Part shown: piece after piece, positions 1-23,275 of the stretch
Layout: each line of letters begins with the position of its first letter
Position numbering within the stretch: position 1 is the stretch's first letter
Virus genome (UHGV): UHGV-0271208
Reading direction: 5' to 3' (one strand)
DNA from: a virus
Length of the DNA stretch: 25,010 nt
Notes under the pieces: model-generated
Seen by the model: the letters and a program-made list of their open reading frames with translations, nothing else
The model's database searches: none
Told to the model about the DNA's origin: nothing
Position numbers and translations under genes: made by a program

Positions 1-81
1 AAATACTCCCGCTATCAACTGACGCTAGTATAACGGAAGCAAATCATCTGCAATGCATTAAGCAGCAGGCAAATTGAGGAT

Positions 82-108
82 AAAAAAAACCCCCACATCA
101 TGTGGGGG
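82..108 (-). terminator. Putative rho-independent terminator (GC hairpin, T-run on minus strand)
   Basis: Inverted repeat CCCCCACATCATGTGGGGG at 90-108 preceded on the plus strand by an A-run at 82-89, which reads as hairpin then U-run on the minus strand. Confidence 0.5.
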
Positions 109-199
109 AAGACAGGGATGGTGAAGAAATCCGGCCAGTAACACAATGGAATAAAAGGATTTATTCTAATCTTCGTCTACATTTTGACTACACTTCGAC

Positions 200-225
200 A
201 AAAAAGGCCCCGTGCATTACGGGGC
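200..225 (-). terminator. Putative rho-independent terminator downstream of the 237-884 gene
   Basis: Stem GCCCCG/CGGGGC at 207-225 with a 7-nt loop; the A-run at 200-205 on the plus strand is a T-run after the hairpin on the minus strand, 12 nt past the stop of the minus-strand gene. Confidence 0.6.
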
Positions 226-236
226 TGCACACCGCA

Positions 237-884
237 TTACTTCCATCCACACGCTTTTTGAAGTGGCTTCAATGCCTCTGACAGACCAGCAACATCAAAT
301 GTCGCACTCACGGGACTTTCATTGTAAGGCGTGATCTGAGTAAACATTGAGTTAGCCTGGCTCAGCGCCTTGACGAACTCGATGACATTGCCACGATAAA
401 ATACCGATTTGGTATCGCTAGATATGTCCCATGTTTTCGTTTTTGCCTTCTGTTTATCCAAGCGAGATAACATCTGTGTTTCGTTCAACCCAAGATAGGT
501 ATCCCAATTGAGGAAAAGTTCTGTTTTTTTCTCGCGGCAAGTGATGTAAAGACTTGGTGTGATCGATTCCCCAAACTGCGACCGGAAAGAATCATTAGCA
601 GAAAGGCTAACATAAACATTCTCTGAATCATCCACGGGTGAAGTTTTCGTGGATACCTGCCATTTTCCAACACCTACTACTGGCTTAGCCTCTTCGGCTA
701 CTTTCGGTGGAAGAACCTTATCGTAACAAGCTAAACGCGCATCACTTTTTGCCTCGGATTGGCATTTCATTAATGCGTCATTGTTAATATCGGCTTTAAC
801 TGGTTCTACCGCATACGCTGTTGATACAGCAGAAGAGCAAAGCGCCATAGCAATGATTATCTTTTTCATACCATTACCTTTCAT
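237..884 (-). CDS. Secreted (periplasmic) protein of unknown function, cargo gene
   Basis: 215-aa ORF with an N-terminal signal peptide (MKKIIIAMALCSSAVSTAYA, likely signal-peptidase I cleavage after AYA). Its start overlaps the upstream gene stop as ATGA (translational coupling). No family recognised by eye. Confidence 0.7.
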   Translation of the reverse strand: MKGNGMKKIIIAMALCSSAVSTAYAVEPVKADINNDALMKCQSEAKSDARLACYDKVLPPKVAEEAKPVVGVGKWQVSTKTSPVDDSENVYVSLSANDSFRSQFGESITPSLYITCREKKTELFLNWDTYLGLNETQMLSRLDKQKAKTKTWDISSDTKSVFYRGNVIEFVKALSQANSMFTQITPYNESPVSATFDVAGLSEALKPLQKACGWK

Positions 885-1213
885 GATTTCGGGCGAGTAA
901 AGAAAACAAACATTCCGATAATGATATCGCCAATAACCCAGATGGTTCCCAGCATCATCATCCCCAGCCCCGTACCAATTGCGGCTCCGGCCCGTTCTGC
1001 GTCTGAGGCTGCGTTATTGATAACGTCACTACTGCCGCCAGCCCCGGCAAAAATGCAATAGATCATAAAGATGTTAAACAGGATAAATATCCACTTAACG
1101 ATCTTGCCAAAAAATGAGCGCTTCGGCTTTCTGACCTGATGGCCGCAAGACGGACATTTAAACGCTGAATCACTAATTTCTTTACTGCATTCCGGGCAGT
1201 TTACTAATGCCAT
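881..1213 (-). CDS. Zinc-ribbon membrane protein (CPxC...CPxC followed by two hydrophobic helices)
   Basis: ORF 881-1234; the likely start is the third ATG (1213), which has AGGA 4-5 nt upstream and gives MALVNCPECSKEISDSAFKCPSCGH, a zinc ribbon, followed by two predicted transmembrane segments. Start uncertain (1213, 1228 or 1234). Confidence 0.65.
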   Translation of the reverse strand: MALVNCPECSKEISDSAFKCPSCGHQVRKPKRSFFGKIVKWIFILFNIFMIYCIFAGAGGSSDVINNAASDAERAGAAIGTGLGMMMLGTIWVIGDIIIGMFVFFTRPKS

Positions 1214-1280
1214 TTTCCTAGACTCCATAGACATGGTTACATAACCGCCATAAAGCCTATCAGTTGATTTTGTTTGAATA

Positions 1281-1320
1281 AATAAAAATTAACCCGCCAT
1301 ATAGGCGGGTTATTTTAGAG
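1281..1320 (-). terminator. Putative terminator after ogr (bidirectional-looking hairpin)
   Basis: Stem AACCCGCC/GGCGGGTT at 1291-1311 with loop ATATA, flanked by AATAAAAATT (a T-run on the minus strand) immediately after the ogr stop. Confidence 0.6.
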
Positions 1321-1557
1321 TGCCAGCGATAACTGATCTTCGCCGTGGTGACTTCGTGGAAAAGCTTCTTGTGGCACCATCGCGCCGGGCGCTGGCTGGG
1401 TCTGGTTTAGTGAACCGTCTATTTCCGTCATGCTGGTGAAACAGTACCCGCACAACATATTTTGACACTGGTGATAGCTGCGTCGTACAAGCAAACTCAG
1501 CTCAACGCTGGTTCTGGTTTTTGCTATTGCACGGCAGCGAGGACAGCGCATTGCCAT
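1315..1557 (-). CDS. ogr: Ogr/Delta-family zinc-finger late-gene transcriptional activator
   Basis: 80-aa ORF with CPRC...RTS...YHQCQN.LCGYCF, matching the P2 Ogr / phage 186 B / P4 Delta signature (CPxC, RTS, YHQCQN, C..F). AGGAGG lies 7 nt upstream of the ATG. Confidence 0.85.
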   Translation of the reverse strand: MAMRCPRCRAIAKTRTSVELSLLVRRSYHQCQNMLCGYCFTSMTEIDGSLNQTQPAPGAMVPQEAFPRSHHGEDQLSLAL

Positions 1558-1605
1558 ACGCGGGCCTCCTTTCAGGACTGGTTAATATCAACGCAAGTAT
1601 AACGC

Positions 1606-2724
1606 TTAAGACGTTGAATCGTCACTCTCCGCTGTCCAGTCGTCGATTTTTACTTCCAGTTCCAGCGACGTGGTAAACCCTCCCCCGCCAATATCGTGAA
1701 CGCACCGCGTTATCGTCCAGTTCCCACTGTCGATCGTGGACTTAAAGCCGTAGACGCTGGCGGGCTGTTCCGGGTACAAATCTGCGCGGCCACGCGCCAG
1801 GGTGATGCTGAACGTAGCCGCACCGCGCTGCAACTCCCGCCACTTAGCCGCAGCGGCACGCTTCGCCGCCTTTTCCGTCTTGAAGGTTTTACGTATAACA
1901 AAAACGTTACCTTCGGCCCCGGCCAGATAATCACCCTCTTTTTTGCTGGATGCAGGCTCTTTCTTTTTGGCCTGGCTGGTTCGTCGCCTGCGGGTTGTTT
2001 TCTTCACGGTAGTGGATGGTTTCTTGCCAAAGTTGAGATCAAGCCAGTATGCAGTTACGCCCGTGTACGCGTCGCGGTCAGCTACGTTAAAGCTATGTTT
2101 ATCACCGCTTGACCGGACTATCTCGATCACCGGCAGCGGCTTGCCGCTCTGCGTCACTCCTTTGCCCGGCGTGATAAACAGAAGCATACCGTTTTTAATG
2201 GTTGCCACCGCGCCCAGCATTTCGGCCATGCGCGTTAAGAAGCTGATATCTGATTCACTCGTCTGATCGGCGTGGTCTATCTCAATCTTCGCCAGTTCTT
2301 CGCTGACACCCGCACGCAGATCGTAGCGACTGGCAATGCTGGCGACCACATCCCCCACGGTAATATCGTGCCAGCTATATTCCCTTTTCACGTTGAAGGT
2401 ATCGCGGAAATCTGCGCTTCTGGCACTGATCGTTAGCTGGTCAGGCGGGCCTGAATGACCTATCTCATCAACCGTATACACGCCCTTAAAAACCAATGGA
2501 TCATTATCCCAGCCCAGCGCCACCGATATCTTTGCGCCGCGTGGTGGTAATGCTACCTGCCCGTCTGCATCATCCAGAGTCAGATCCAGCGTGTCCGCTT
2601 CAAATCCCCGGTTATCTGTCAGGGAAAGAGAGATCAACCGGTTATCCAGCGCCGTAAGCTGATTACCTTCAATTTCAATACTGAACGCCGGGCGCGGCGA
2701 ATATCGGTTTTCTGTCGTGTCCAT
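1606..2724 (-). CDS. D: P2 gpD-like tail protein (phage late control D family, baseplate hub)
   Basis: 372-aa ORF with the gpD-family pattern (RLISLSLTDNRGFEADTLDLTLDD, ISARSADFR, an internal Lys/Arg-rich linker, C-terminal FTTSLELEV). Directly upstream of ogr on the same strand, as in P2. Confidence 0.85.
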   Translation of the reverse strand: MDTTENRYSPRPAFSIEIEGNQLTALDNRLISLSLTDNRGFEADTLDLTLDDADGQVALPPRGAKISVALGWDNDPLVFKGVYTVDEIGHSGPPDQLTISARSADFRDTFNVKREYSWHDITVGDVVASIASRYDLRAGVSEELAKIEIDHADQTSESDISFLTRMAEMLGAVATIKNGMLLFITPGKGVTQSGKPLPVIEIVRSSGDKHSFNVADRDAYTGVTAYWLDLNFGKKPSTTVKKTTRRRRTSQAKKKEPASSKKEGDYLAGAEGNVFVIRKTFKTEKAAKRAAAAKWRELQRGAATFSITLARGRADLYPEQPASVYGFKSTIDSGNWTITRCVHDIGGGGFTTSLELEVKIDDWTAESDDSTS

Positions 2725-2791
2725 ATCAACCCCTTCATCATGATGGGGTACATCGTCGCCACGCGCGCGCGCATGAACAACGCCCCGTCAT

Positions 2792-2809
2792 TGTTGCAGG
2801 TTGCTGACA
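2792..2809. promoter_or_regulatory. Ogr-type late-promoter dyad (TGT-N12-ACA) between divergent D and FI
   Basis: TGT at 2792-2794, a 12-nt spacer, ACA at 2807-2809. The centre is about 81 nt upstream of the FI ATG and about 76 nt upstream of the D ATG. A weak -10 candidate (TGATATT, 2846-2852) lies on the FI side. P2 late promoters carry TGT-N12-ACA centred near -55. Confidence 0.5.
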
Positions 2810-2881
2810 ACCCTTATTCATCGCATCAGCCTGCCATTGCCGCAATGATATTCGCAGTCATTAAACTGGCGAGGCAAATAC

Positions 2882-4075
2882 ATGGCCACTAACTACCATC
2901 ACGGTGTAACCGTCACGGAAACCACCGACCTTAGCACGATGATCACCGACATTGATTCGGCGGTGATCGGCGTTGTCTGCACCGCTGATGATGCGGACGA
3001 AACAGCGTTCCCGCTGGATACCCCTGTACTGATCACCCGCGTGGCTAACATGCTGGGCAAGGCAGGTAAAACCGGCACCCTGTTTACCACCTTGAAAGCG
3101 ATTTCAGACCAGACCAGCCCGCAAACCATTGTGATCCGCGTTGCTGATGCTGCAAATATCGAACCGCCAGAAGGCGGCACCGCACAGACACAGGATCAAC
3201 TGGTTATTGGCGGCACCGATGCAAACGGACGCTTTACCGGCATGTACGCGCTGCTGTCTGCCGAAATGCGCGTAGGCGTGCGCCCGCGTGTGCTGGCTGT
3301 TCCCGGTCTTGATACGGAAGCGGTGGCCGCACAACTCGGCGTCATTGCCGAAAAGCTGCGCGCGTTTGCTTACGTGGCAGCGAACGGCTGCAACAGCATC
3401 GCCGAAGTGAAGGAATACCGCGAACAGTTCTCCCAGCGTGAAATGATGGTTATCTGGCCTAATTTCATCTGCTACGACACCAACGCCGGAGCGAATGCCA
3501 CCGTGCCCGTGGGTGCCCATGCGGTTGGGATGCGCGCCAAAATCGACGCAACGCAGGGCTGGCATAAAACCATTTCCAACGTGCCCGTTAATAACGTGCT
3601 GGGGATGGATCGGGATATCTATTTCACGTTGCAGGGCACCGATACCGACGCCGACGAACTGAACGCAGCAGGCGTTACCACGCTGATCAAGCAGGACGGC
3701 TACCGCATCTGGGGATCGCGTACCTGCGACGCGGAAACGTATATCTTCGAAAGCTATACCCGAACCGCGCAGATCGTTGCGGATACCGTCGCCGAAGCAC
3801 ATTTCGCCTATGTTGATAAACCGCTTACCCCGTCGCTGGTAAAGGACATTGTGGACGGCATCAATAAGAAGCTGACCTCATATGTGACGGCTGGCAAGCT
3901 GCTGGGCGCCCGCTGCTGGTATGACCCGGAACCGAATACCTCGGAAACCCTGCGCAATGGTCAACTGACCATTAAGTACAACTACACCCCTGTTCCACCG
4001 CTGGAAAATCTCAGCCTGGTACAGGAGTTCACCGACGAATATTTCGCTACGTTTTCCAGCGCAGTGAATAACTAA
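2882..4075 (+). CDS. FI: Contractile tail sheath protein (P2 FI-like)
   Basis: 397-aa ORF; the N-terminus (YHHGV.V) and overall pattern resemble the P2 FI sheath family. GAGG SD 7 nt upstream. Followed by tube, E/E', T and U in P2 order. Confidence 0.9.
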   Translation: MATNYHHGVTVTETTDLSTMITDIDSAVIGVVCTADDADETAFPLDTPVLITRVANMLGKAGKTGTLFTTLKAISDQTSPQTIVIRVADAANIEPPEGGTAQTQDQLVIGGTDANGRFTGMYALLSAEMRVGVRPRVLAVPGLDTEAVAAQLGVIAEKLRAFAYVAANGCNSIAEVKEYREQFSQREMMVIWPNFICYDTNAGANATVPVGAHAVGMRAKIDATQGWHKTISNVPVNNVLGMDRDIYFTLQGTDTDADELNAAGVTTLIKQDGYRIWGSRTCDAETYIFESYTRTAQIVADTVAEAHFAYVDKPLTPSLVKDIVDGINKKLTSYVTAGKLLGARCWYDPEPNTSETLRNGQLTIKYNYTPVPPLENLSLVQEFTDEYFATFSSAVNN

Positions 4076-4087
4076 CCGGGGGCGCTT

Positions 4088-4603
4088 ATGGCACTGCCTA
4101 AGAAACTCAAATATTTCAATATGTTCTTTGACGGGGATAACTACTTCGGCATGGTGCCGGAAATCACCCCCGCCAAACTCACCAAAAAAACCGAAGACTA
4201 CCAGGCGGGCGGTATGCCGGGTTCGGTTGCGGTGGATCTGGGCTTCGACGCTGGCGCCCTGGATATGGATATCACGCTGGGCGGCATGGATGCAGGGCTA
4301 ATGAAAAAATGGGGCGTTACCACTGCGGACGGAATGCAGGTGCGCTTTGCTGGCTCTTACCAGGACGATGCGACCGGCGACGCCGTACCGTGCGAAATCC
4401 AGACGCGTGGCCGCTTCACTGAACTGGATCCCGGTTCGGCAAAGGTTGGGGATGATACTTCGCATAAGTACACCCTGAAAAACACCTATTACAAGCTGAC
4501 CATCAATAGCGAAGAAATTATCGAAATTGATGTGCTCAACATGATCTACAAAGTTGCCGGTGTGGATGTGCTGGAAAAACACCGCGCTAACATCGGCTTA
4601 TAA
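4088..4603 (+). CDS. FII: Tail tube protein (P2 FII-like)
   Basis: 171-aa ORF 12 nt after FI; size and position match P2 FII. Confidence 0.85.
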   Translation: MALPKKLKYFNMFFDGDNYFGMVPEITPAKLTKKTEDYQAGGMPGSVAVDLGFDAGALDMDITLGGMDAGLMKKWGVTTADGMQVRFAGSYQDDATGDAVPCEIQTRGRFTELDPGSAKVGDDTSHKYTLKNTYYKLTINSEEIIEIDVLNMIYKVAGVDVLEKHRANIGL

Positions 4604-4617
4604 GGAAACCCGGCACC

Positions 4618-4953
4618 ATGAGCAAGACCAAAGAAAACACCGTTATTCTTACCGCCCCTATTACGCGCGGTAAGACCAAAATCACCGAAGTGGCGATCAC
4701 TTCCGTGCTTAGACAGGCTGGATCACTGCGCGGCTTAAAAGCCTATGACGTGCTGACGTCCAACTATGACGCGCTGGTTATTCTGCTGCCCCGCGTTACC
4801 GCTCCGGCATTAACCGCCGATGAGATTGCCCGAATGGATACCTGGGATTTTTGCCAGTTAGCCAACGCGGTGGTTGATTTTTTGCAACCCTCTTCGGATC
4901 TGACCGCGACGGATACGGGCAACGAATCATCCGATGCCCCTGCGAACGCATAG
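4618..4953 (+). CDS. E: Tail assembly chaperone (P2 gpE-like), zero-frame product
   Basis: 111-aa ORF with AAGGAA SD; lies between the tube and tape-measure genes and contains a TTTTTTG slippery heptamer in frame. Confidence 0.8.
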   Translation: MSKTKENTVILTAPITRGKTKITEVAITSVLRQAGSLRGLKAYDVLTSNYDALVILLPRVTAPALTADEIARMDTWDFCQLANAVVDFLQPSSDLTATDTGNESSDAPANA

Positions 4954-5078
4954 AAGACCTGATGGCAGATATCGCCGTCATATTCCACTGGCGGCCGGTA
5001 GAGATGGACGCCATGACGGTACAGGAAATACTGTTATGGCGTGATCAGGCGGCTGCGCGCAGTGGTGGAGATCACTAA
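4618..5078 (+). CDS. E': E+E' fusion chaperone made by programmed -1 frameshift at T6G (4878-4884)
   Basis: The heptamer T_TTT_TTG sits in the zero frame at 4878-4884. The -1 frame stays open for 64 codons (ATLFGSDRDGYGQRIIRCPCERIEDLMADIAVIFHWRPVEMDAMTVQEILLWRDQAAARSGGDH) and ends at TAA 5076-5078, overlapping the T start as TAAATG. Same arrangement as the P2 E/E' frameshift. Confidence 0.6.
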
Positions 5079-8000
5079 ATGGCAGACCGCAATTTAAATA
5101 TCAGGGTGGCATTCAGCGCCCTGAATAATATGTCCCGCCCTGTCAACGCGGCGCGCCAGAGTGCCGCCGCGTTGGCGTCTCAAATCAATCAGACCAAAAC
5201 CAGCATTAAAGGGCTTGAGCGTCAGGCAACCAGCTTTGACCGCCTCACCGCAGCCAATAAAAAAACCACCGAACAACTGGCCCAGGCGAAAGAACAGGCC
5301 CGGCAAATGGCGGCGGCTTATGGCCCGTTACGCCAGCGCAGCGCCGAACAGGTTGCCGCCCTCAATCAGCAACGTGCAGCCATTCGCCAGTTAACCCAGC
5401 AGCAGAAAGGCGAGCAGACGCAGCTTAACCAGTTGCGCGCCAGCTTCTACAGCGAAGGCATTGCGATCAGCAGCGCCAGCCGGGCGACGGAACAGATCAA
5501 CCAGCGCACCGCGCAATACAACCGCCAGCTTGCCGAACAGCAGCGACGGCTTGACGCTGTTAACCAGGCGCAGGCCCGTTACAGCCGCGCCAAAGAAACC
5601 GGCGAAAAGATGATGAGCGGGGGGATGAAAACCGCCGCAGTAGGGGCGGCAACCCTCGCACCTGTCGCCGCTGCGGTTAAATCATACAGCAGCCTTGAAG
5701 ACGCCATGAAAGGCGTAGCCAAACAGGTAAACGGCTTGCGTGACGACAGCGGCAACCGCACCCCGCAGTATGAAGAAATGCAGCGGGCGATCATGGATGC
5801 CAGCGAAAAGCTACCAATGGCTAACGGCGCTGTTGACTATGCCGCCCTGGTCGAAGGTGGCGCGCGCATGGGCGTGGCAAACAGCGATGATCCGTGGGAA
5901 AAACAAAAAGCCGATCTGCTGGCTTTCGCCAGCATGGCGGCAAAAGCTTCGGTAGCCTTTGAACTGCCCGCCGATCAGCTTTCTGAAAGCCTCGGTAAGA
6001 TTGCCGGGCTGTATAAAATCCCTACCCAGAATATTGAACAGTTAGGCGACGCCATAAACTACCTGGACGATAACGCGAAGTCGAAAGGCTCCGATATTAT
6101 CGACGTGCTCCAGCGCGTTGGCGGACTTGCCAGCCAACTGGATTACAAGCAAGCCGCCGCGCTGGGTTCCACCTTCCTGACGCTTGGATCACCTGCCGAA
6201 GTTGCCGCCAGCGCAACCAATGCAATGGTGCGCGAACTATCGATCGCCACAGTACAAAGCGATAAATTTTTGGGTGCGCTGGATGAAATCGGCGTCAATG
6301 CTGAAAAAGTCCAGAAAAGCATGTCAGTGGACGCGATGGGCACGATCATTTCAGTGCTGGAAGCGTCCAAAAAACTTGCACCAGATAAGCAGGTAGCCAA
6401 CCTTACTCAGATTTTCGGTAAAGAGTTCGGCGATGATGCGCAGAAACTTGCGAACAACCTGCCCGAACTACGCCGCCAGATAGAACTGACGCAGGGCGCA
6501 GCCGCTAAAGGTTCCATGAATCGGGAATCTGATATCAATAAAGCGTCCCTTTCAGCTCAGTGGCAACTGACCAAAACCGGCGCGGTTAACGCATTGAGTT
6601 CAGCAGGGGAAACGCTCCGCGAACCGCTGATGGATATCATGCTTACCGTCAGTAAGGTGGTTGGCAGCGTCCGCCGCTGGGTTGAGGCAAACCCGGCTCT
6701 GGTTGGCTCAATCATGAAAGTCACCGCAGCCATAGGCGCGTTGCTGGTTGTCGTGGGTGGCCTGATGCTGACCATCGGCGCAGTGCTCGGCCCGATGGCA
6801 CTTGTTCGCCTCAGCTTCACCACGCTGGCTGGCTCCGGTGGGGTAACTCCCCTCATAGGCTCGCTGGGAAAATTATCCAGCACATTACGCGGGCTGATCC
6901 CCTCACTATCTGGCGTGGGCCGAAGTATTAAAGACTGGCCTGCCCTCTTCCGATCTGCTGCGTCTGGCATTACCCAATTTAGTAAACAAGCTATTGGCGG
7001 GTTAAACACAGCGTTAATGGCACTTTCACGCGGTGCTGTTGCTGCCGGACAGGGGCTATTTACCCTATTCACAAGGCCTATGACGGCTATAACCTGGCTT
7101 GGTAATGGCCTCAGAACTCTGGCGACCTCCGGTTTCGGCGCTTTGCTGAACGTTGGACGCACCGTAATGATGGCGTTGGGTGGCGGGTTATCATTACTTC
7201 TTAGCCCTATTGGAATACTGGTAATCGCTTTATCAGCAGCAGCGATCGCCGTTATTAAATTCTGGGAACCTATAAAAGCCTTTTTCACTGGCTTTTACAC
7301 CGGGTTAATGAGTGGCTTACAGCCTTTAACCTCAGCATTTAGTACAGCCTTTGCACCACTAGCCCCACTCTTTGACTCTATCGGTAATGCTGTCGGTGGC
7401 GTCTGGGAGTGGTTCACAAAACTATTCGAACCTATCCAGTTCTCCAGCGAAGCGCTAGCCTCCTGCACCAGTGCCGGGGAAACGTTCGGTAAGGTTGTAG
7501 GTAACGCTCTATCTGCATTAACACCAATAATCGAAGGAATAGCGCGCGGTATAGGATGGGTACTGGAAAAACTCGGCGCCATCCCCGACGCAACAAAAGC
7601 AGCGCAGCAAGCTGCGGAAAGTATGCACAAAGACCCTGTTGTCTGGGAGTGGGATCCGCAGCAAAAGAAAATGGTTAAAAAGGGTTGGAACTGGTCGCCG
7701 AAAGACGATCAGCAGAAGAAAACCAACCAGAAGCAACAGCAGGCCATTGACCAGCAGAAAAAGCAGGAAAGCTTAATTAACTCGCTCAAGGGCCCGGCCA
7801 ACATCGTGCCGAAGATGAGCAGCAGCCTGGATAAGATCGCCACCAATACCACGGAGAAGAAAGACGGCCCCGGCGAAATTGTCTTCAAGAATAAGCAGCC
7901 CTATATCCCGATCCGTGGCGGATATTCGGAACCGCTTAAGCAGGCACAGCGCCAGCTACCATCCCTTACCGATTGGGTGACGCAGCAGGCCGGATCGCTG

Positions 8001-8249
8001 ATCGCTTCCGTTACCCCCTGGCAGGTTGAGAAGCCCGCCGCACGGATGCCTGTTTCGGCGTCTCCGTCTGCGGCTTCCGTCGCTGCGCTGATGCCTGCTC
8101 CGGGTGGCGATGTATATAACCTTAACTTCGACTTTAGCGGCCAGAAACTGGATGAAGAAACCATTATCAGGCGCGTGCGCGAAGAACTTGCGTTAGCGAA
8201 GCAACAGGCCGACCGGCGCAAGCGCTCCCAACTGACCGATCACGTCTAA
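5079..8249 (+). CDS. T: Tail tape measure protein (P2 gpT-like), 1056 aa
   Basis: Long ORF right after E/E' with an Ala/Gln-rich coiled-coil N-terminal third, central Gly/Ala-rich hydrophobic segments and a Lys/Gln-rich C-terminal region; position and composition typical of tape measure proteins. Confidence 0.9.
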   Translation: MADRNLNIRVAFSALNNMSRPVNAARQSAAALASQINQTKTSIKGLERQATSFDRLTAANKKTTEQLAQAKEQARQMAAAYGPLRQRSAEQVAALNQQRAAIRQLTQQQKGEQTQLNQLRASFYSEGIAISSASRATEQINQRTAQYNRQLAEQQRRLDAVNQAQARYSRAKETGEKMMSGGMKTAAVGAATLAPVAAAVKSYSSLEDAMKGVAKQVNGLRDDSGNRTPQYEEMQRAIMDASEKLPMANGAVDYAALVEGGARMGVANSDDPWEKQKADLLAFASMAAKASVAFELPADQLSESLGKIAGLYKIPTQNIEQLGDAINYLDDNAKSKGSDIIDVLQRVGGLASQLDYKQAAALGSTFLTLGSPAEVAASATNAMVRELSIATVQSDKFLGALDEIGVNAEKVQKSMSVDAMGTIISVLEASKKLAPDKQVANLTQIFGKEFGDDAQKLANNLPELRRQIELTQGAAAKGSMNRESDINKASLSAQWQLTKTGAVNALSSAGETLREPLMDIMLTVSKVVGSVRRWVEANPALVGSIMKVTAAIGALLVVVGGLMLTIGAVLGPMALVRLSFTTLAGSGGVTPLIGSLGKLSSTLRGLIPSLSGVGRSIKDWPALFRSAASGITQFSKQAIGGLNTALMALSRGAVAAGQGLFTLFTRPMTAITWLGNGLRTLATSGFGALLNVGRTVMMALGGGLSLLLSPIGILVIALSAAAIAVIKFWEPIKAFFTGFYTGLMSGLQPLTSAFSTAFAPLAPLFDSIGNAVGGVWEWFTKLFEPIQFSSEALASCTSAGETFGKVVGNALSALTPIIEGIARGIGWVLEKLGAIPDATKAAQQAAESMHKDPVVWEWDPQQKKMVKKGWNWSPKDDQQKKTNQKQQQAIDQQKKQESLINSLKGPANIVPKMSSSLDKIATNTTEKKDGPGEIVFKNKQPYIPIRGGYSEPLKQAQRQLPSLTDWVTQQAGSLIASVTPWQVEKPAARMPVSASPSAASVAALMPAPGGDVYNLNFDFSGQKLDEETIIRRVREELALAKQQADRRKRSQLTDHV

Positions 8250-8258
8250 GGCAATATC

Positions 8259-8708
8259 ATGATGATGATTCTGGGGATGTTCCCCTTTTCACTGCAAACC
8301 ACACCTTACCAGAGTGCGAATAAAACCAACTCCTGGCGGCACGTCAAAAACGATCGCGTGGGGAAATCCCCGCGCTATCAGTTCATCGGCGCAGATGAAG
8401 AACCGTTCGTACTCAGCGGCACGCTGTACCCCGAAATAAGCGGCGGTGATGTGTCGCTTGTCATGCTGGAAACTATGGCTTTTTCCGGGCGCCCGTGGCC
8501 CCTGATAGAAGGCACGGGCAGGATCTACGGCATGTATGTAATTGAGCAGATCACGCAAAACCGGACGGAGTTTTTTAAGGACGGGAAGGCAAAGAAAATT
8601 GATTTCACGCTCAACCTGAAACGGGTAAGCGAGGACATACGGGAAAAGCTGGCTGAAACCACCACCGACGATCTCTTCTCTCTGGTGAAAACCAACCTTT
8701 CGATATAA
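8259..8708 (+). CDS. U: Tail protein (P2 gpU-like)
   Basis: 149-aa ORF 10 nt after T; size and position match P2 gpU. Confidence 0.8.
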   Translation: MMMILGMFPFSLQTTPYQSANKTNSWRHVKNDRVGKSPRYQFIGADEEPFVLSGTLYPEISGGDVSLVMLETMAFSGRPWPLIEGTGRIYGMYVIEQITQNRTEFFKDGKAKKIDFTLNLKRVSEDIREKLAETTTDDLFSLVKTNLSI

Positions 8709-8710
8709 GA

Positions 8711-8738
8711 AAAGCGGGCCATTGCCCGCTTCGTCTTC
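8711..8738 (+). terminator. Possible terminator after U
   Basis: Stem AAGCGGGC/GCCCGCTT at 8712-8731 with loop CATT, followed by CGTCTTCC (a weak U-tract). Confidence 0.4.
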
Positions 8739-8814
8739 CGTAATACACCACCATAACTGACCGTGCTACAGCACCGTTAAAAGTGACCGTACTCGATACA
8801 CACGGCCAGCACGG

Positions 8815-9141
8815 TTATAACCGGCCATGCGTGCCGGAATTCTTATCTCTGGTCGCTGGGAATTTTTTGTAAAGCGTAGATATCCCAACATCATAAATTA
8901 TGGCAACCCTCCGGCGCGATTCCCCTGCCGCTATTAACCTACCCGCCTGCGCCCATTGTTCTGGTGTAAGTTTGGGACGTCGTCCACCAATTCGTCCCTG
9001 TGCGCGAGCAGCTTCCAGGCCAGCTTTTGTTCGTTCAACAATCAGTTCTCGCAGGGTCTGAACGTAAGGCGAATCCTGGGAGTCGGTTCTTACTGCATCC
9101 TTTTCACTGGGGCTTGATGGGCCCAAGCGTGGATCACTCAC
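8815..9141 (-). pseudogene. Truncated serine DNA invertase (Cin/Gin/Hin/Pin family); C-terminal HTH part only
   Basis: 108-aa ORF with RELIVERTKAGLEAARAQGRIGGRRPKLTPEQWAQAGRLIAAG...VAIIYDVGISTLYKKFPA, which matches the C-terminal half of Hin/Gin-type invertases. The ORF begins at GTG and no catalytic N-terminal domain is found in any frame upstream (9141-9524). Confidence 0.7.
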
Positions 9142-9524
9142 GCGTCAGTGAGTGGAGCGCGTGTCTCAATAATGACCTCGAGCGTTTTGTCGATATTTTG
9201 GAGAGTCAGATTGAGCTCAGTAAGAGCCGCAATGAGTGGAAGGAGGTTATCTCCGCCGCCACCATAGCCAATGCCTCCACAGCTCTGGATTGGGGGATGG
9301 TTCACGAGGTTGCCGCCGCCACTTACCCGCAGGCACCCGGCACATACTGGTGGATTAACTGTTAACATAATTACCTCTCAAATTTAAATTGGGCAGAGAT
9401 GCCAGCATCCAGGCTCGCGCCTGGACGATTGTCTGATGATGAAAAGTGCAGTTTAATCTGTGGCTGGATTATCTGGATGCACTGGAGCTGGTTGATACCT
9501 CCAGTGCGCCAGATATTGAATGGC

Positions 9525-9935
9525 CTACTCCTCCGGCAGTTCAGGCCAGATGACATCCGGTGCGGTGCTGGTATCTGTTGCCGTCACAGCGTCGATATAA
9601 TCCAGCACAGCGTTAAGTCGGGTAGTTTCTTCTTGCGTCAGTTTACGCCCGGCCTGCAGCTTTAACTGAATCACGCTGATATTGACCATTGCTGCGTCTA
9701 ACAGCGACTGTTTTTTCTGTTCAGCATCAGCTACCAGTTCATCATGAGAACGTTCCGGAGGGAGCGGCGCAGTAAATACCCCGTCTGAATACCCCCAGCC
9801 AATTCCGGGATGCTCACTGATATCAGAAATATCAATGAGCTGCTGATTATCCGGCACTGTGAATTCAGCCTCGCCATCCCAGACAATGACATTCACAACC
9901 ATCTCATTTTCAATAACTGCATATGACGCATTCAT
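9525..9935 (-). CDS. Tail fibre assembly protein (Tfa; P1 U / P2 G-like)
   Basis: ORF 9525-9959; the likely start is ATG 9935, overlapping the fibre stop as TAATG, giving MNASYAVIENE. The C-terminal APDVIWPELPEE resembles tail-fibre chaperones. Confidence 0.85.
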   Translation of the reverse strand: MNASYAVIENEMVVNVIVWDGEAEFTVPDNQQLIDISDISEHPGIGWGYSDGVFTAPLPPERSHDELVADAEQKKQSLLDAAMVNISVIQLKLQAGRKLTQEETTRLNAVLDYIDAVTATDTSTAPDVIWPELPEE

Positions 9936-12649
9936 TATGCAAACTCCTCGATAATACAAATCCCATCAGCACCTTTCCCGCCTGTCATACTGGTTCCGCT
10001 ATAACCGGCATCGTATGCGCCACCGCCACCTGAACCATATGCCTTACCACTAACACCACCGCCAGCGCCTGCGCGTCCACCGCCCCCCCAGTACGATGTT
10101 CCGCCTTCACCGCTGACGCCGATATTTCCGGACTGACCGTCGCCACCATTTCCACCAGTGATGCTGATATCGCCAGTACTCGGCACACCTCCGTTACCGC
10201 CGTTTGTGTTTGTGGTTCCTACTTTTCCGGCACCTTCGCCACCGATAGCAATTAACGATGCGAACGAACTATAGCCGCCATTAAGGCCGTAATTTGCTCC
10301 AATACCACCGGCTCCACCTGCGCCGATAGTGACTGGATAACTATTCTGTGTCGGGGTCATTATTGAAATTATTGTTCCACCGGCCCCGCCGCCAGCACCG
10401 AAAAACGTTTCATTATTGGATATAGCCTGGCAGCCGCCCCCACCACCACCGCCACCCGTTATTGTGACCCTGATCCGTTTTGTTCCTGGGGTTGGGGTAT
10501 ACGTACCTGATGAAGTGAAAACCTGGGTATTCACCAAACGCCCAACATATCCGCTTGAATCGCTCAGGCCAAGGTTAGCAGCAGTTAAAGTAATATTTGC
10601 AGAACCATCAAACTTAACACCGTTGATAGTGCGTGCAGTCTGTAGTTTCGTTGCGGTTGCGGCATTACCGGTAGTGCTCTGATTACCTGCTTTATTCACG
10701 CCCGGCAGGTCGATATTGGCACTACCATCGAACGACACTCCGCCGATTGTGCGTGCTGTTTGCAGTTTTGTGGCGGTGGATGCATTACCTGTCAAAGATC
10801 CACTAAGAGCCACGGCACTAAGAGACTTAACACTTACATCCTGACCCCATCCGGAAACAACAACCTGACTCCACGCTGCCCAGCTTCCATTAACAACAAA
10901 GCGAACGTATATACGTTTTGTGTCGCTGTTAATCAGCGTTTGCATGTTCGCATAATCTGATCCCGTAGTCTTACGAATCGACTCTACACGAACCAAAAAG
11001 TTACCGCTTACGCCGTCAGGCTTATTGGTAATATTTGCACCACCTGCGACAGTTTTGCATTGATAGTATTTAACGGATCCAGCTTCTGTATTAGCAATAA
11101 TCAAGTCGTTTAAATCAATAGTCCGGCCGTCAATGGCTTCCGGCTCGATGGCTCCTGCTATCCCGGCACTGAATGTGGCAGCGGCTGAAAACGCTGTCTT
11201 ACCTTTGAAAGTCTGTTGAGAACTCCAGGTATTAGCTGTGCTCAACAGGGGGATCTTTTCGCCGCTGGTTCCGATTTCTCTTAAACCAAGGTATTGGATA
11301 ACAGCCAGTGTGCTTGTTTTAGCCAGGATATCGCGACCGACTGACGTTAAATCAGTCTGGGAAACAGTGTCTGTACCGGTAAAGTACGGCAATTTATTTG
11401 CGCCTGTCGCAAGACCAGCAAGCGCGGTTAAAGTTGCATCCAGAGGCTGTTTGCCTGCCAGCGCATTTGTCATTGTTGTCGCAAAGTTCGGGTCATTGCC
11501 CAGTGCTGCTGCAAGCTCATTCAGGGTATCAAGAGCTTCAGGTGATGAGCCGACCAATGCAGAGATAGCAGCTCTTACATAAGCGGTCGTAGCAATCTGC
11601 GTGTTATTCGTACCCTGTGCAGCGGTAGGCGCAGTAGGTATTCCCGTTAATGCAGGACTTGCTAAAGGAGCTTTAAGAGCCAGAGCATTGTTGATAGTTG
11701 TGCTGAAATTCGGGTCGTTATTGATCGCAGCAGCTATTTCTTTAAGCGTATCCAGAGTGCCAGGTGCACCGTTGATAAGTGCCGTTATAGCTGCCTTAAC
11801 AAAGGCTGTATTTGCGATCTGCGTGCTGTTTGTACCTTGCGCTGCCGTCGGCGCGGTTGGCGTTCCTGTCAGACTCGGGCTTTCTATTGGCGCTTTGGTA
11901 TCAGCCAGCTCTTTTACAGACTTAACGGCTTTAGGGGTAGCCGCCATTGTTTCGCTGTCGCTGTTAGTTGCGCTACTGAGCTGAACTAATCCCTTTTGTG
12001 TTGTGCTTGCATCCTGCGCCGTATACTTGCTTTTAGCCAGATCGTAGGCTTTTTTAACCGCCAGCGAACTTGCAGCGACATCACTTCTGGTACTGGTTAC
12101 AGAGTCGGAAATTTCAATGCCTATCGCGAGATCGATGCGGTCGGATACATCTATCATTTCCTTAGTAATAGCAGATACGCCAGCAGGGATATTCACCGTA
12201 CAAACAAGCAGTTCTCCATCTCCTAACTGATATGAATCGGTATAGGTTCTGGCAACAAATTCAGCCGCATGAATATGTGACGCGGTATTAACCTGATAAG
12301 AATCTTCTCCAAGGAGGTATCTTCCCTTCAGCACAATTGCATATTTCTTACCTGCGCTAAGTGCAAGAGAAATATCCTTACGCTGCTGAATAGTTACCTG
12401 GTAGAATTCACCAATATTCACTGACGCCGCGCCAGCGGTTTTATCACCATCCACTGAGGTGATTAACAGGTTCATCCCACCGCCAGGCTTAGGAAAAAAA
12501 CCGGCATAAAATCCAGGGTCAACAATTCCCCTGAATTTTCGGTTTAGCGCGGCTGACAGATATGGTTCGTGGTATTGCACATCAGCCACCAGAGCCAACG
12601 ACTCGGGTGATGGGTAAGTAACCGATGTGACAACTGTAACGTCATTCAT
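9935..12649 (-). CDS. Long tail fibre protein (P1 S-like) with Gly-rich C-terminal domain
   Basis: Contains repeated tail-fibre motifs (GLVQLSSATNSDSETMAATPKAVKSV, TGTPTAPTAAQGTNSTQIANTAFV, ALDTLNELAAALGNDPNF) and a C-terminal Gly-rich domain including GGGGGGGG. Likely start MNDVTVV at 12649 with AAGGA SD; the ORF track extends to 12736. Confidence 0.85.
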   Translation of the reverse strand: MNDVTVVTSVTYPSPESLALVADVQYHEPYLSAALNRKFRGIVDPGFYAGFFPKPGGGMNLLITSVDGDKTAGAASVNIGEFYQVTIQQRKDISLALSAGKKYAIVLKGRYLLGEDSYQVNTASHIHAAEFVARTYTDSYQLGDGELLVCTVNIPAGVSAITKEMIDVSDRIDLAIGIEISDSVTSTRSDVAASSLAVKKAYDLAKSKYTAQDASTTQKGLVQLSSATNSDSETMAATPKAVKSVKELADTKAPIESPSLTGTPTAPTAAQGTNSTQIANTAFVKAAITALINGAPGTLDTLKEIAAAINNDPNFSTTINNALALKAPLASPALTGIPTAPTAAQGTNNTQIATTAYVRAAISALVGSSPEALDTLNELAAALGNDPNFATTMTNALAGKQPLDATLTALAGLATGANKLPYFTGTDTVSQTDLTSVGRDILAKTSTLAVIQYLGLREIGTSGEKIPLLSTANTWSSQQTFKGKTAFSAAATFSAGIAGAIEPEAIDGRTIDLNDLIIANTEAGSVKYYQCKTVAGGANITNKPDGVSGNFLVRVESIRKTTGSDYANMQTLINSDTKRIYVRFVVNGSWAAWSQVVVSGWGQDVSVKSLSAVALSGSLTGNASTATKLQTARTIGGVSFDGSANIDLPGVNKAGNQSTTGNAATATKLQTARTINGVKFDGSANITLTAANLGLSDSSGYVGRLVNTQVFTSSGTYTPTPGTKRIRVTITGGGGGGGGCQAISNNETFFGAGGGAGGTIISIMTPTQNSYPVTIGAGGAGGIGANYGLNGGYSSFASLIAIGGEGAGKVGTTNTNGGNGGVPSTGDISITGGNGGDGQSGNIGVSGEGGTSYWGGGGRAGAGGGVSGKAYGSGGGGAYDAGYSGTSMTGGKGADGICIIEEFA

Positions 12650-18700: not shown

Positions 18701-19485
18701 GCCTTACTCCCTGACTTTCCAATAAAACGACCACGCGCATCGCGTTGGTTTTGGCTTTTTTGCGCACCGCCTTTTTGATCGAACATTTCGCGAGCGTGTT
18801 CGGCTGCTTCGGTCCGTTGTGCCTTTATATCCTCTGGTATAGCCTTCCTGCGTCGTTTTTTACCCTTTGGTGTAGTTGATTTGGCCTGCTGTTCCTGTTG
18901 AGCAATGCCCTCCTGAACTACACGAGAAACGTCCCCTAAATTAAGCCGTTTCATTGCGTCAACAATAGGGTCTACTGATGGCGCATTGGCCACAAAGTCT
19001 GGCCGGGAATTTTCGATTGTTCGATTTAATGCCGACACACTGCGAGATACTGGGTCAACCGTTGCAACGCGTTCCCCTTTCAAATCACGAGCGAGTTTGA
19101 CCGTTTCTAACCGCTGTGCTTTAACATCCTCTGTTATTGCCTCTCTTCGTCTATTTGGGGGATTGTGCGCTGTTGGTGCAGCCTGCTGTTCACGGTTAGT
19201 GACTTTGTCCTCCCGTATACGAGAAACGTCCCCTAAATTAAGCCGTTTTATTGCGTCAACAATAGGGTCCACTGATGGCGCATTGGTCACAAAGTCAGGA
19301 CGTGAATTTTCGATTGTGCGATTTAATGCCGACACACTGCGAGATACTGGGTCAACAGTTGCAACTCGTTCCCCTTTCAAATCTTCAACAGCTTCCCGAA
19401 TACCTGCAAGCTCTTCCAGCTCTTTCGCGCTGGCGGTTTCAACTGTCCTTATAACATCGTCAATATTGGCGTTTTTTCTTTCCAT
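15796..19485 (-). CDS. sit: Sit-like structural injection transglycosylase / tape-measure-like protein with SLT domain
   Basis: 1229-aa ORF with a lytic-transglycosylase motif (LPEGTLYAIAATESGGNPYAKSQTGALGMFQFTGIAREETGL), Gly/Ala/Lys-rich hydrophobic segments and an N-terminal tandem duplication. Size and neighbours match P1 sit as recalled. Confidence 0.8.
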   Translation of the reverse strand: MERKNANIDDVIRTVETASAKELEELAGIREAVEDLKGERVATVDPVSRSVSALNRTIENSRPDFVTNAPSVDPIVDAIKRLNLGDVSRIREDKVTNREQQAAPTAHNPPNRRREAITEDVKAQRLETVKLARDLKGERVATVDPVSRSVSALNRTIENSRPDFVANAPSVDPIVDAMKRLNLGDVSRVVQEGIAQQEQQAKSTTPKGKKRRRKAIPEDIKAQRTEAAEHAREMFDQKGGAQKSQNQRDARGRFIGKSGSKAAAEDARAERAEKARRKEDDERLNAESGLLKKLSKVAEGIGNPSETRAVDALGYAVAGPLWAAGKELGGISKEVGGSLNGARKSIADVIRGNDDNSRRKGFFRRKSQNSADVVQVNTQKRTVQELQEQTSEIKEGNDKILSALDQIAKNTGKKKGGLLSKLFSLLGKGAGGVASLLMGRGMLKKAGALAFGALGAKKLVGMLRGGGKKTIAHEGGDLAARAAGKLGLKAVGKGALRAIPLVGTVAGGIYDAVTGWNDTEAQRRAFGLKSGQDPSFQQKAAYTLANVLDMGGLVSGISSAIGEVLKSLGFEDIGNMLQSFSTESIAQAIDSGITNLETYISNLGDTISTKFEDYTAKIGDAVSAWFSDTSNKLLEKLDAIKDFFTVDNLKQVFSDAIDSAIDFIKNPGKHIKEAAGNIWDGVKNLPGKALDAAVDAVKNTPAAMIVSKIPNPIGEANAKEITPELKAPVNSHQETSDSKTESDAKQTNIVTRVINAALDTAKDSNKTVKETANQIINANAVETGNSALQKIDKAIGQNSSSSSSLNSTGTRNDIQKAADTYNNGRLDVKVGSLGSEGKANLDKLAPYFAELENKYGLPEGTLYAIAATESGGNPYAKSQTGALGMFQFTGIAREETGLAEGESFDPVKSAEAAALLMSKYLKQANGDLNEAITAYNAGFGTINKWKKGTGDLSKENREYAIKVNTHRARYLGGEIYTPGAGAQGGAQYGVRGPLPDNAVIDQSTGLAFTPGDSPFEKGGLVDKIGNAVGVNDLVNKFMNGRGMRREVVQGTLEERARGKGTATAAGNVYVDTPMPVEEARPVASNSSYFDQLGAQMGIDGLFDKLRNSPGMRKNNATEPASTSKVTTAANDLQQPTGRMQIDGQVISDLGGSGAKPTMQLADNTVSLDGETKRLFAQMTSLLARIEEHTKDSAKGQGTVVKVSTPQPGVMRTVPLSIDDPLMNDYARVD
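18922..19383. repeat. Intragenic direct repeat: two 165-bp copies (18922-19086, 19219-19383), about 93% identical, period 297 bp
   Basis: Compared base by base: about 11 mismatches in 165. Because 297 bp is 99 codons, the repeat is in frame and encodes the duplicated peptide RVATVDPVSRSVSALNRTIENSRPDFV.NAPSVDPIVDA.KRLNLGDVSR. Confidence 0.85.
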
Positions 19486-23008: not shown

Positions 23009-23204
23009 GTATTTTTAAGTCGCGAATGCTATCTTTTCGCATCATATTGACCTTTTAATCGTTCAGGCTTATAGTTCCGCCGTCGTAGCAAATTCTGCGA
23101 CCGGGTTTAGCAGCCTGAATGTTAGTGCGGACAACCGCAGATATCCGATATTGCGGTATTTTTGTGTCCGTAAAACCGCGTTACGCCCAAATTATGGTGG
23201 GGCG

Positions 23205-23275
23205 TGATGGGGAGGCTTCGGCCTGCTGGTTTCACTAACGCCAGTCTGCTAACCCCGTCACGTCCTGCCACCTGT
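23205..23275 (+). ncRNA. c4: c4-like antisense RNA (ImmI-type repressor of icd/ant translation); boundaries approximate
   Basis: CACTAAC (23233-23239) and CTGCTAAC (23246-23253) are complementary to GTTTAGCAG / GTTAGTG pairs at 23105-23127 and 23274-23311, the second overlapping the icd-like SD. This mirrors the P1 c4 a'/b' versus a1/b1 and a2/b2 layout. Confidence 0.4.

Follow-up and report, generated by a model that had tools for sequence, protein, structure and literature searches.

The zone between positions 8709 and 9553 of UHGV-0271208 is very probably the non-functional fossil of a tail-fibre inversion switch of the Pin/Gin/Cin type, with the fibre now fixed in one form. In the 25,010-nucleotide stretch of viral DNA that was analysed (the window), this scar belongs to a Senquatrovirus-like (P2-like) prophage, where it occupies the interval between the tail gene U and tfa, the gene of the fibre chaperone; it contains a piece of an invertase gene, a piece of a ClpP-like gene and the stub of a second chaperone gene. 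Invertible fibre switches are textbook systems, found as the G segment of Mu with Gin, the C segment of P1 with Cin, the P segment of e14 with Pin, and in P2-like phages. Four of the five testable features that define a functional switch are lacking at the locus, and inversion within the window is impossible because the catalytic domain, the second crossover site and the alternative exon are all absent. The original prediction of a decayed Pin/Gin/Cin-type switch is thereby borne out, as only the C-terminal part of the invertase is left, the alternative fibre segment Sv' is gone and the window offers no second crossover site. The scar is ordinary gene decay, a pseudogene scar in a P2-like prophage, and not a new system.

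The left neighbour of the scar is the gpU tail gene (8259-8708, plus strand; Pfam Phage_P2_GpU, 4.7e-39), whose gene order matches that of phage SEN5 and of the prophage of E. coli CX12. A GC-rich, terminator-like hairpin of nine pairs at 8711-8732, a minus-strand site, separates the converging ends of gpU and the invertase remnant and is kept in both SEN5 and CX12. The zone yielded no RNA genes, neither Rfam families nor tRNAs, and a promoter scan found no excess of promoter-like sites in it. A hix-like string in the 3' end of gpU (8689-8700) was rejected as a crossover site, its core match being at chance level (14 found, 13 expected).

The invertase remnant lies in a minus-strand ORF of 108 codons with a GTG start, at 8815-9141. 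The part of this ORF that derives from the invertase, at 8815-9051, is the 3' fragment of a PinE-type serine DNA invertase pseudogene and comprises the end of helix E and the helix-turn-helix (HTH) domain, approximately Gin residues 116-183, with the C-terminal tail. A C-terminal HTH DNA-binding domain is present, as seen from matches to Pfam HTH_7 (resolvase HTH; residues 53-96, 1.7e-13) and to the Hin DNA-binding domain (1hcr, 1.8e-6); the ORF also matches the DNA invertase family of PHROG (9e-24) and aligns with Gin residues 113-183 (PDB 3uj3, 8e-25). Codons 31-105 correspond to residues 116-190 of the intact 197-residue invertase of Escherichia phage pro483 with 73% identity, and at the nucleotide level the fragment is ~81% identical to pinE of K-12 and 99.8% identical to a recombinase pseudogene of CX12. 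Recombinases of the Gin/Cin/Pin/Hin type carry their catalytic domain at the N-terminus, with the active-site serine near residue 9-10. When the whole window was searched by tblastn with a full P1-like Cin, only residues 115-181 were matched, at 9051-8851, and no serine recombinase N-terminal catalytic domain was found in any frame of the 25 kb. Invertase residues 1-115, and with them all of the gene's 5' portion of about 345 nt, are absent. In gin, cin and hin the Fis-dependent recombinational enhancer sits in the 5' part of the gene, and by analogy it would have gone with that part here.

The original prediction, that the 108-codon ORF keeps the DNA-binding C-terminus of an invertase and has no catalytic domain, holds for the HTH and is confirmed by the Cin search; it does not extend to codons 1-30, which are not invertase. 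This GTG-initiated stretch (9052-9141) is a spurious 5' extension without counterpart in the alignments to Gin or to the pro483 invertase, and it is antisense to the clpP-like gene, because its coordinates fall inside the clpP-like remnant. We considered whether the ORF might nevertheless yield a functional HTH-only protein, either a DNA-binding regulator or a decoy that blocks other invertases at their crossover sites. The HTH domain is intact with strong scores and the frame is open across the deletion junction described below, but the first 30 codons are antisense to another gene and begin with GTG, no Shine-Dalgarno-like sequence is apparent by eye upstream, and the promoter scan found no promoter-like site for the ORF. 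In addition, the same region of the parental cassette is a pseudogene with an internal stop, gene callers leave the ORF uncalled in five related contigs, and an exact-protein look-up did not find the 108-residue sequence in the public record. Such a protein is very unlikely. From the anatomy of the zone, its ORFs are presumably silent, and no inverted isoform is to be expected at the scar.

The state from which the window derives is apparent in CX12. Between the same flanks, CX12 has a recombinase pseudogene, an intact opposite-strand 183-codon ORF whose annotation reads ClpP proteolytic subunit, a fragment of a tfa pseudogene with a frameshift, and an intact tfa. The recombinase pseudogene has an internal stop and lacks its N-terminus, reading GDTLVV*KRDRLGRS with unrelated sequence upstream. 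Positions 7753-9051 of the window correspond to 5154-6452 of the CX12 locus, and positions 9046-10585 to 6986-8525, with 98-99.8% identity; relative to CX12 the window is therefore shorter by a 534-bp deletion, with its junction at an imperfect 6-bp microhomology, TTCT(C/T)G, at 9046-9051. The deletion took invertase codons ~54-115 together with codons 1-78 of the clpP-like gene and the region upstream of them.

By following contigs that encode the window's exact Tfa protein, we located the 34-mer that spans the junction in five independent assemblies (our contigs L017, L018, L019, L022 and L023; the sources are GCA_016687435.1, GCA_026413045.1, Logan ERR1971418, Logan SRR28111264 and ENA ERZ27276150). 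The deletion is real, because these five public assemblies have an identical junction. They look like complete Senquatrovirus-like prophages, lie at two distinct places in the chromosome, match the window with 98.6-100% identity over up to 10.5 kb, and show the segment in one and the same orientation throughout. Exact scans for the 34-mer in two large collections, one of genome contigs and one of metagenome contigs, gave no match, and the 534-bp deletion is absent from every complete E. coli genome in the collection.

To the right of the junction, on the plus strand, lies the 3' remnant of a gene for a non-canonical ClpP paralogue (9048-9365), which encodes residues 79-183 and the stop and is 100% identical by tblastn to the 183-residue CX12 protein. 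Only the last 105 codons remain; the start codon, the ribosome-binding site and the region of the catalytic serine are lost. The remnant matches PHROG 94. The complete CX12 protein matches Pfam CLP_protease (5e-13) and ClpP1 of Pseudomonas plecoglossicida (PDB 9uxt, 1e-37). In the latter match both the Ser and the His position are conserved, and this N-truncated, non-canonical ClpP1 is the closest solved relative of the CX12 protein. A complete ClpP fold of ~180 residues with catalytic Ser and His is thus found in the CX12 protein and not in the window, where the serine region is missing because residues 79-183 alone are kept. A plus-strand ORF of 121 codons is present at 9000-9365, and since 9048-9365 is 100% identical to ClpP residues 79-183, this ORF is the tail of the truncated clpP-like gene. 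No PADLOC defence-system match was obtained for the ClpP-like protein, the invertase fragment or two cargo ORFs at the left end. In related genomes an intact copy of the paralogue fills the slot of the lost alternative fibre exon, and other temperate phages, too, carry the gene inserted on the opposite strand.

The clpP-like remnant also accounts for what had been taken as filler between the invertase ORF and tfa. The gap, predicted at about 385 bp, measures 383 bp (9142-9524) and holds the remnant; it is not empty. A 76-residue Gly-rich minus-strand ORF (9138-9368) and a palindrome, CACTCAC-N6-GTGAGTG (9135-9154), are indeed present as had been noted, but both are by-products of the clpP-like gene on the opposite strand. 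The ORF is not a gene but the antisense shadow of the remnant, because the frame that faces it on the other strand is 100% identical to a ClpP-family protein. Gene callers do report it in contigs L018, L019, L020, L022 and L023, and the neighbouring fibre has a Gly-rich domain, so one might see in it a real gene, perhaps the remnant of a Gly-rich fibre tip. We hold this to be extremely unlikely: the ORF has no family match in Pfam, NCBIfam or PHROG, either in the window or in those contigs, a tblastn search with the fibre C-terminus is blank across 9141-9524, and its glycines are the reverse complement of Ala and Pro codons in the ClpP-family frame. (The invertase and clpP-like fragments likewise gave nothing against NCBIfam.) The 108-codon, 121-codon and 76-codon ORFs are accidental frames over the junction. 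The palindrome was rejected as a recombination site, as it is unlike gix or cix, lies inside coding sequence, where the clpP-like remnant encodes DHSRVSEW, and belongs to a set of 36 perfect inverted repeats in the window that have 7-bp arms and loops of 3-8 nt; it is incidental, being found in all copies of the cassette and absent from a 51%-identical homologue.

That a complete invertase is truly encoded and its truncation is a sequencing or assembly error, such as the frameshift that the original prediction had allowed for, is practically inconceivable and was excluded on checking, because the missing part is the 534-bp deletion whose identical junction is common to five independent assemblies; no catalytic-domain homology exists in any frame of the window, and past 9051 the other strand codes for clpP-like sequence with 100% identity.

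The right end of the scar is a stub of tfa'/U', the alternative gene for tail-fibre assembly; this frameshifted 3' remnant (9417-9553, plus strand) converges on the intact tail-fibre assembly chaperone gene tfa/U (9525-9935, or 9959, minus strand; 136 residues from ATG) and overlaps its stop. The stub has ~45 codons, its translation ends in WLDYLDALELVDTSSAPDIEWPTPPAVQAR before the stop, and over its last 36 codons it shares 50-52% identity with the C-terminal ends of Tfa proteins: 52% with that of the window (E 2e-9) and 50% with Tfa' of pro483 (E 3e-9). RefSeq automatic annotation places a tfa' pseudogene at the equivalent position in CX12. The intact Tfa matches Pfam Caudo_TAP (3e-21), and the exact protein occurs on 21 public contigs. 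A full-length Caudo_TAP chaperone gene directly 3' of a fibre gene is provided by tfa and not by the tfa' stub. Two converging sets, Sv-U and U'-Sv', characterize a switch of this kind; here Sv and tfa are intact, tfa' is a stub and Sv' is gone, since tblastn with the fibre C-terminus detected no fibre C-terminus in 9141-9524. The prediction that the alternative segments are missing is hence correct for Sv' but needs amending for tfa', of which the stub remains.

The tail-fibre gene itself (9935-12649, minus strand; 904 residues from ATG; Pfam Phage_fiber_2 and Gly_rich_2) is a mosaic of a P1-like N-terminal shaft and a Gly-rich receptor-binding domain identical to that of the prophage, and the exact chimeric protein is absent from the public record by exact-protein look-up. 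Within its P1-like part is the sole intact crossover site, the cix sequence TTCTCTTAAACCAAGGTATTGGATAA (11276-11301, plus strand), which has no partner and is the only match in the window at up to 3 mismatches. It is identical to the S-gene cix of an intact P1-like plasmid (L005), in which there are two sites, the S-gene cix and an inverted partner beside cin. Where a switch has two inverted 26-bp crossover sites (gix/cix/pix) flanking the segment, the window has one. A degenerate pix-like sequence, ATCGCTCAGGCCAAGGTTAGCAGCAG (10560-10585), falls on the NLGL motif of the fibre and marks an old boundary of the cassette segment; an e14-like locus (L003) has a good pix-like site at the homologous position (7220-7245), which is also where its homology with the window stops. 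The suggestion that fibre specificity is probably locked gains support from the absence of the catalytic domain and of Sv' and from the single crossover site, features of the sequence that make a fixed fibre the probable outcome.

According to Kirigo et al. (2025, PMC12529663), inversion of the e14 P segment by PinQ/PinR serves as an anti-phage mechanism. Like the scar, e14 carries a fibre switch of the same family in a cryptic prophage, and it can be driven by an invertase encoded elsewhere; unlike the scar, it has the two sites around the segment that inversion needs, while the window has one intact site in 25 kb. An in-trans mechanism of the e14 type cannot operate within the window because there is only that one site. 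If provided in trans from elsewhere in the genome, an invertase such as PinE, PinQ or Cin could still use the lone cix along with a site that lies beyond the window.

Comparison with related loci provides a model for how the scar may have arisen, the order of events being read from present-day alleles and not from a phylogeny. The ancestor would have had the fibre gene and tfa, then tfa' and Sv' on the opposite strand, a crossover site and the invertase. This layout is kept in pro483, whose intact switch consists of the fibre gene, tfa, opposite-strand tfa' and Sv', and the invertase, followed by the sheath gene. The window shares its gene order and orientations, including an invertase on the strand of the fibre that adjoins the tail-gene block. 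In contrast to pro483, the window lacks the first 115 residues of the invertase, Sv', all but a stub of tfa' and the crossover site on the invertase side, and it has the clpP-like fragment at the position of Sv'.

In a second step, the opposite-strand gene for the 183-residue ClpP paralogue would have taken the place of the first ~53 codons of the invertase, the crossover site next to them, Sv' and the larger part of tfa'. With the invertase codons, the catalytic serine would have been lost and, if gin, cin and hin are a guide, the Fis-dependent enhancer as well; the invertase remnant would also have acquired a stop codon. This putative stage is kept in CX12 and 24 other complete genomes: we found the cassette of invertase remnant, clpP-like gene and tfa' stub in 25 of 5426 complete E. 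coli genomes, and in all 25 the homology to PinE (~81%) ends at the same truncation point. The cassette occurs in P2-like, e14-like and lambdoid contexts, and its carriers include E. coli CX12, CX08, PO06101 and N2512 and the e14-like or lambdoid prophage remnants of ST540 and EC1722-1. The window shares locus and flanks with the CX12 cassette at 98-99.8% identity, and RefSeq marks both the recombinase and tfa' as pseudogenes in CX12. It differs from that cassette by the 534 bp that held the start and the catalytic-serine codon of the clpP-like gene and the central part of the invertase remnant. The third step would be the deletion of these 534 bp at the imperfect TTCT(C/T)G repeats, by which the middle of an already dead invertase gene and 78 clpP-like codons would have been lost and the state of the window reached. 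Salmonella phage SEN5 (Senquatrovirus) may represent a later, fourth stage. It has the same tail-gene order (D; FI to U), followed by tfa and the fibre gene on the other strand, and after gpU it retains the last ~90 nt of the same invertase gene with the rest of the switch lost, which would make the window an intermediate.

Truncated invertases and lost invertible segments have been described before, and the locus is best filed as a further decayed example. In P1-like phage-plasmids, a truncated cin together with a missing C segment was reported by Venturini et al. (2019, PMC6906374), and pMRSN23713_p1 is a further plasmid with a truncated cin and no C segment. As in the plasmids of that report, the window has a partial invertase, no alternative fibre cassette and a presumably fixed host range; unlike them, it keeps the C-terminal and not the N-terminal part of the invertase, and does so in a P2-like prophage. 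In many P1-like plasmids S and tfa are followed by holin genes without any switch, and a look-up of the P1 R protein (2510 blocks) shows that locked P1-like fibres are frequent.

The window is composed of P2-like prophage DNA and P1-like DNA, and the original prediction had placed the join between them in the zone of the scar. Against this, the entire zone is 100% P2-like prophage and the join is found roughly at 10489/10490, inside the receptor-binding domain of the fibre and about 1 kb to the right of the scar. Compared with the prophage contig L019, the window is 100% identical from position 1 to 10489, all 22 mismatches fall in 10490-10585, and the homology then ends. Positions 10500-10585 are closer to a P1-like sequence (L009; 3 mismatches) than to L019 (18 mismatches), and from 10593 to the end of the window P1-like plasmids are 97-98% identical. 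It is because of the prophage identity up to 10489 and the P1-like identity from 10593 that we place the join inside the receptor-binding region. Over 9459-10585 the P1-like plasmids are ~89% identical to the window, which reflects a shared module of receptor-binding domain and tfa.

Whether the join is a real recombinant or an assembly artefact bears on the context of the scar. We see an even chance that the contig is an assembly chimera, formed across the fibre gene at a repeat that a prophage in the chromosome has in common with a separate P1-like plasmid. Two contigs that match the window with 100% identity stop at 10226 (L022) and 10286 (L023), and L019 breaks 558 bp beyond 10585; assemblers therefore meet a branch in the fibre region. 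Furthermore, the prophage of related genomes has its own P2-type fibre of 659 residues, and P1-like elements are normally plasmids. On the other hand, the fibre ORF is intact over the switch point, natural exchange occurs at the same module boundary in other loci, and a single crossover between plasmid and prophage would yield exactly such a structure. If the contig is a chimera, the scar belongs to the prophage only and says nothing of a locking of the P1-like fibre, while its identity is unaffected.

A real recombinant is a tentative possibility. A P1-like phage-plasmid and a Senquatrovirus-like prophage in the chromosome may very recently have crossed over in vivo, inside their shared Gly-rich receptor-binding module at ~10489/10490, which would have brought P1-like DNA into the chromosome; the hybrid fibre gene would then carry the scar as a passenger, and the exon slot would have served as a landing pad for accessory genes, here the non-canonical ClpP paralogue. 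A chromosomal P1-like region in E. coli EC16 was rejected as a parallel to the join, as it has the fibre end without a cin switch and is unlinked to the cassette. It is extremely improbable that the decayed switch zone itself is the join, perhaps made by the invertase acting at the lost site. The homologous module of the P1-like plasmids does end inside the zone, at 9459-9469, but its ~89% match is that of a shared fibre module, P1-like identity of at least 97% begins only at 10593, and the 100% identity of the window to the P2-like prophage extends from base 1 to 10489, with no break in the zone.

The scar is thus read as the decayed remains of an inversion switch whichever account of the join is preferred. 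For annotation it carries a warning, since the 108-residue "HTH protein" and the 76-residue Gly-rich ORF are artefacts that gene callers still report. Two points are worth keeping: the intact ClpP paralogue in the related cassettes, and the join of P1-like and P2-like DNA, which may be a genuine recombinant of plasmid and prophage or else a chimera of the assembly and needs checking before the contig is used. The scar matters little in itself; its value is that, with intact pro483, the CX12 cassette, the window and SEN5, it offers a clean stepwise picture of how a host-range switch may decay.

Of 5426 complete E. coli genomes, 25 have an intact 183-residue non-canonical ClpP paralogue in the place of the lost alternative fibre exon, where the window retains only a clpP-like remnant (9048-9365). 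Intact copies lie at 6754-7305 of the E. coli CX12 locus (L001), at 5475-6026 of an e14-like prophage locus (L003) and, in loci L002, L006 and L010, at 5478-6029, 4001-4537 and 4001-4552, respectively. The nearest solved structure to the paralogue is that of P. plecoglossicida ClpP1 (PDB ID: 9uxt), which possesses a Ser-His-Pro triad and has an N-truncated form. Homologues with 51-70% identity are inserted on the opposite strand in two other settings: P22-like phages, where they adjoin arc, and a Mu-like tail cluster of Pantoea, where the insert separates the tape-measure gene from the tail gene that follows it. A PADLOC search returned no match for the 183-residue protein.

At 23069-23275 we found the P1 immI elements, namely the C4 antisense RNA (RF01695) together with the a1/b1 target of this RNA (RF03163), which confirms the P1-like nature of the window's right half. 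Many P1-like plasmids have locked fibre ends of their own, at 4770-5411 in the plasmid L009 and around 10750-11600 in L024, L027, L030 and L031; some retain an N-terminal cin stub directly followed by tfa, and others carry S, tfa and the holin genes in that order, without any switch. Cross-matches to an intact P1-like plasmid (L005) revealed that about 298 bp are tandemly duplicated, with about 80% identity, at 18788-19383, within a gene for a 1229-residue P1 sit-like transglycosylase/tape-measure protein.

The tape-measure gene of the prophage part (5079-8249) encodes 1056 residues in the window and its deletion-bearing relatives, as against 974 in CX12 and the Salmonella phage SEN5, and the part around 6832-7750 gives a poor alignment or none against CX12. 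Two minus-strand cargo ORFs, located between ogr and the end of the prophage that adjoins a cation-efflux gene (probably fieF), encode a 215-residue VasI-like protein (type VI secretion-associated; PHROG 1848; 237-884) and a 117-residue zinc-ribbon protein (PHROG 6586; 881-1234). The cargo at this position is different in CX12 and in L017, one of the assemblies that share the window's deletion junction.

The true change from prophage-type to P1-like sequence is found at 10489-10592, within the receptor-binding region of the fibre. Two contigs identical to the window stop at 10226 and 10286, and the window may therefore be either a genuine recombinant of plasmid and prophage or a chimera produced by assembly.

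The final codons of gpU (8685-8708; TGAAAACCAACCTTTCGATATAA) resemble a hix/gix crossover site, a likeness that is probably coincidental because the number of matches to the core (14) is about that expected by chance (13). One intact P1 cix site is present in the fibre gene at 11276-11301, on the motif IQYLGLRE; it has no partner in the 25-kb window and could be used by an invertase encoded elsewhere only together with a site outside the window. A degenerate pix-like sequence on an NLGL motif (10560-10585) lies exactly where the homology of the cassette to the e14-like prophage ends, and its counterpart there (7220-7245 of L003) is a good site. Old crossover sites coincide with the boundaries of the fibre modules.
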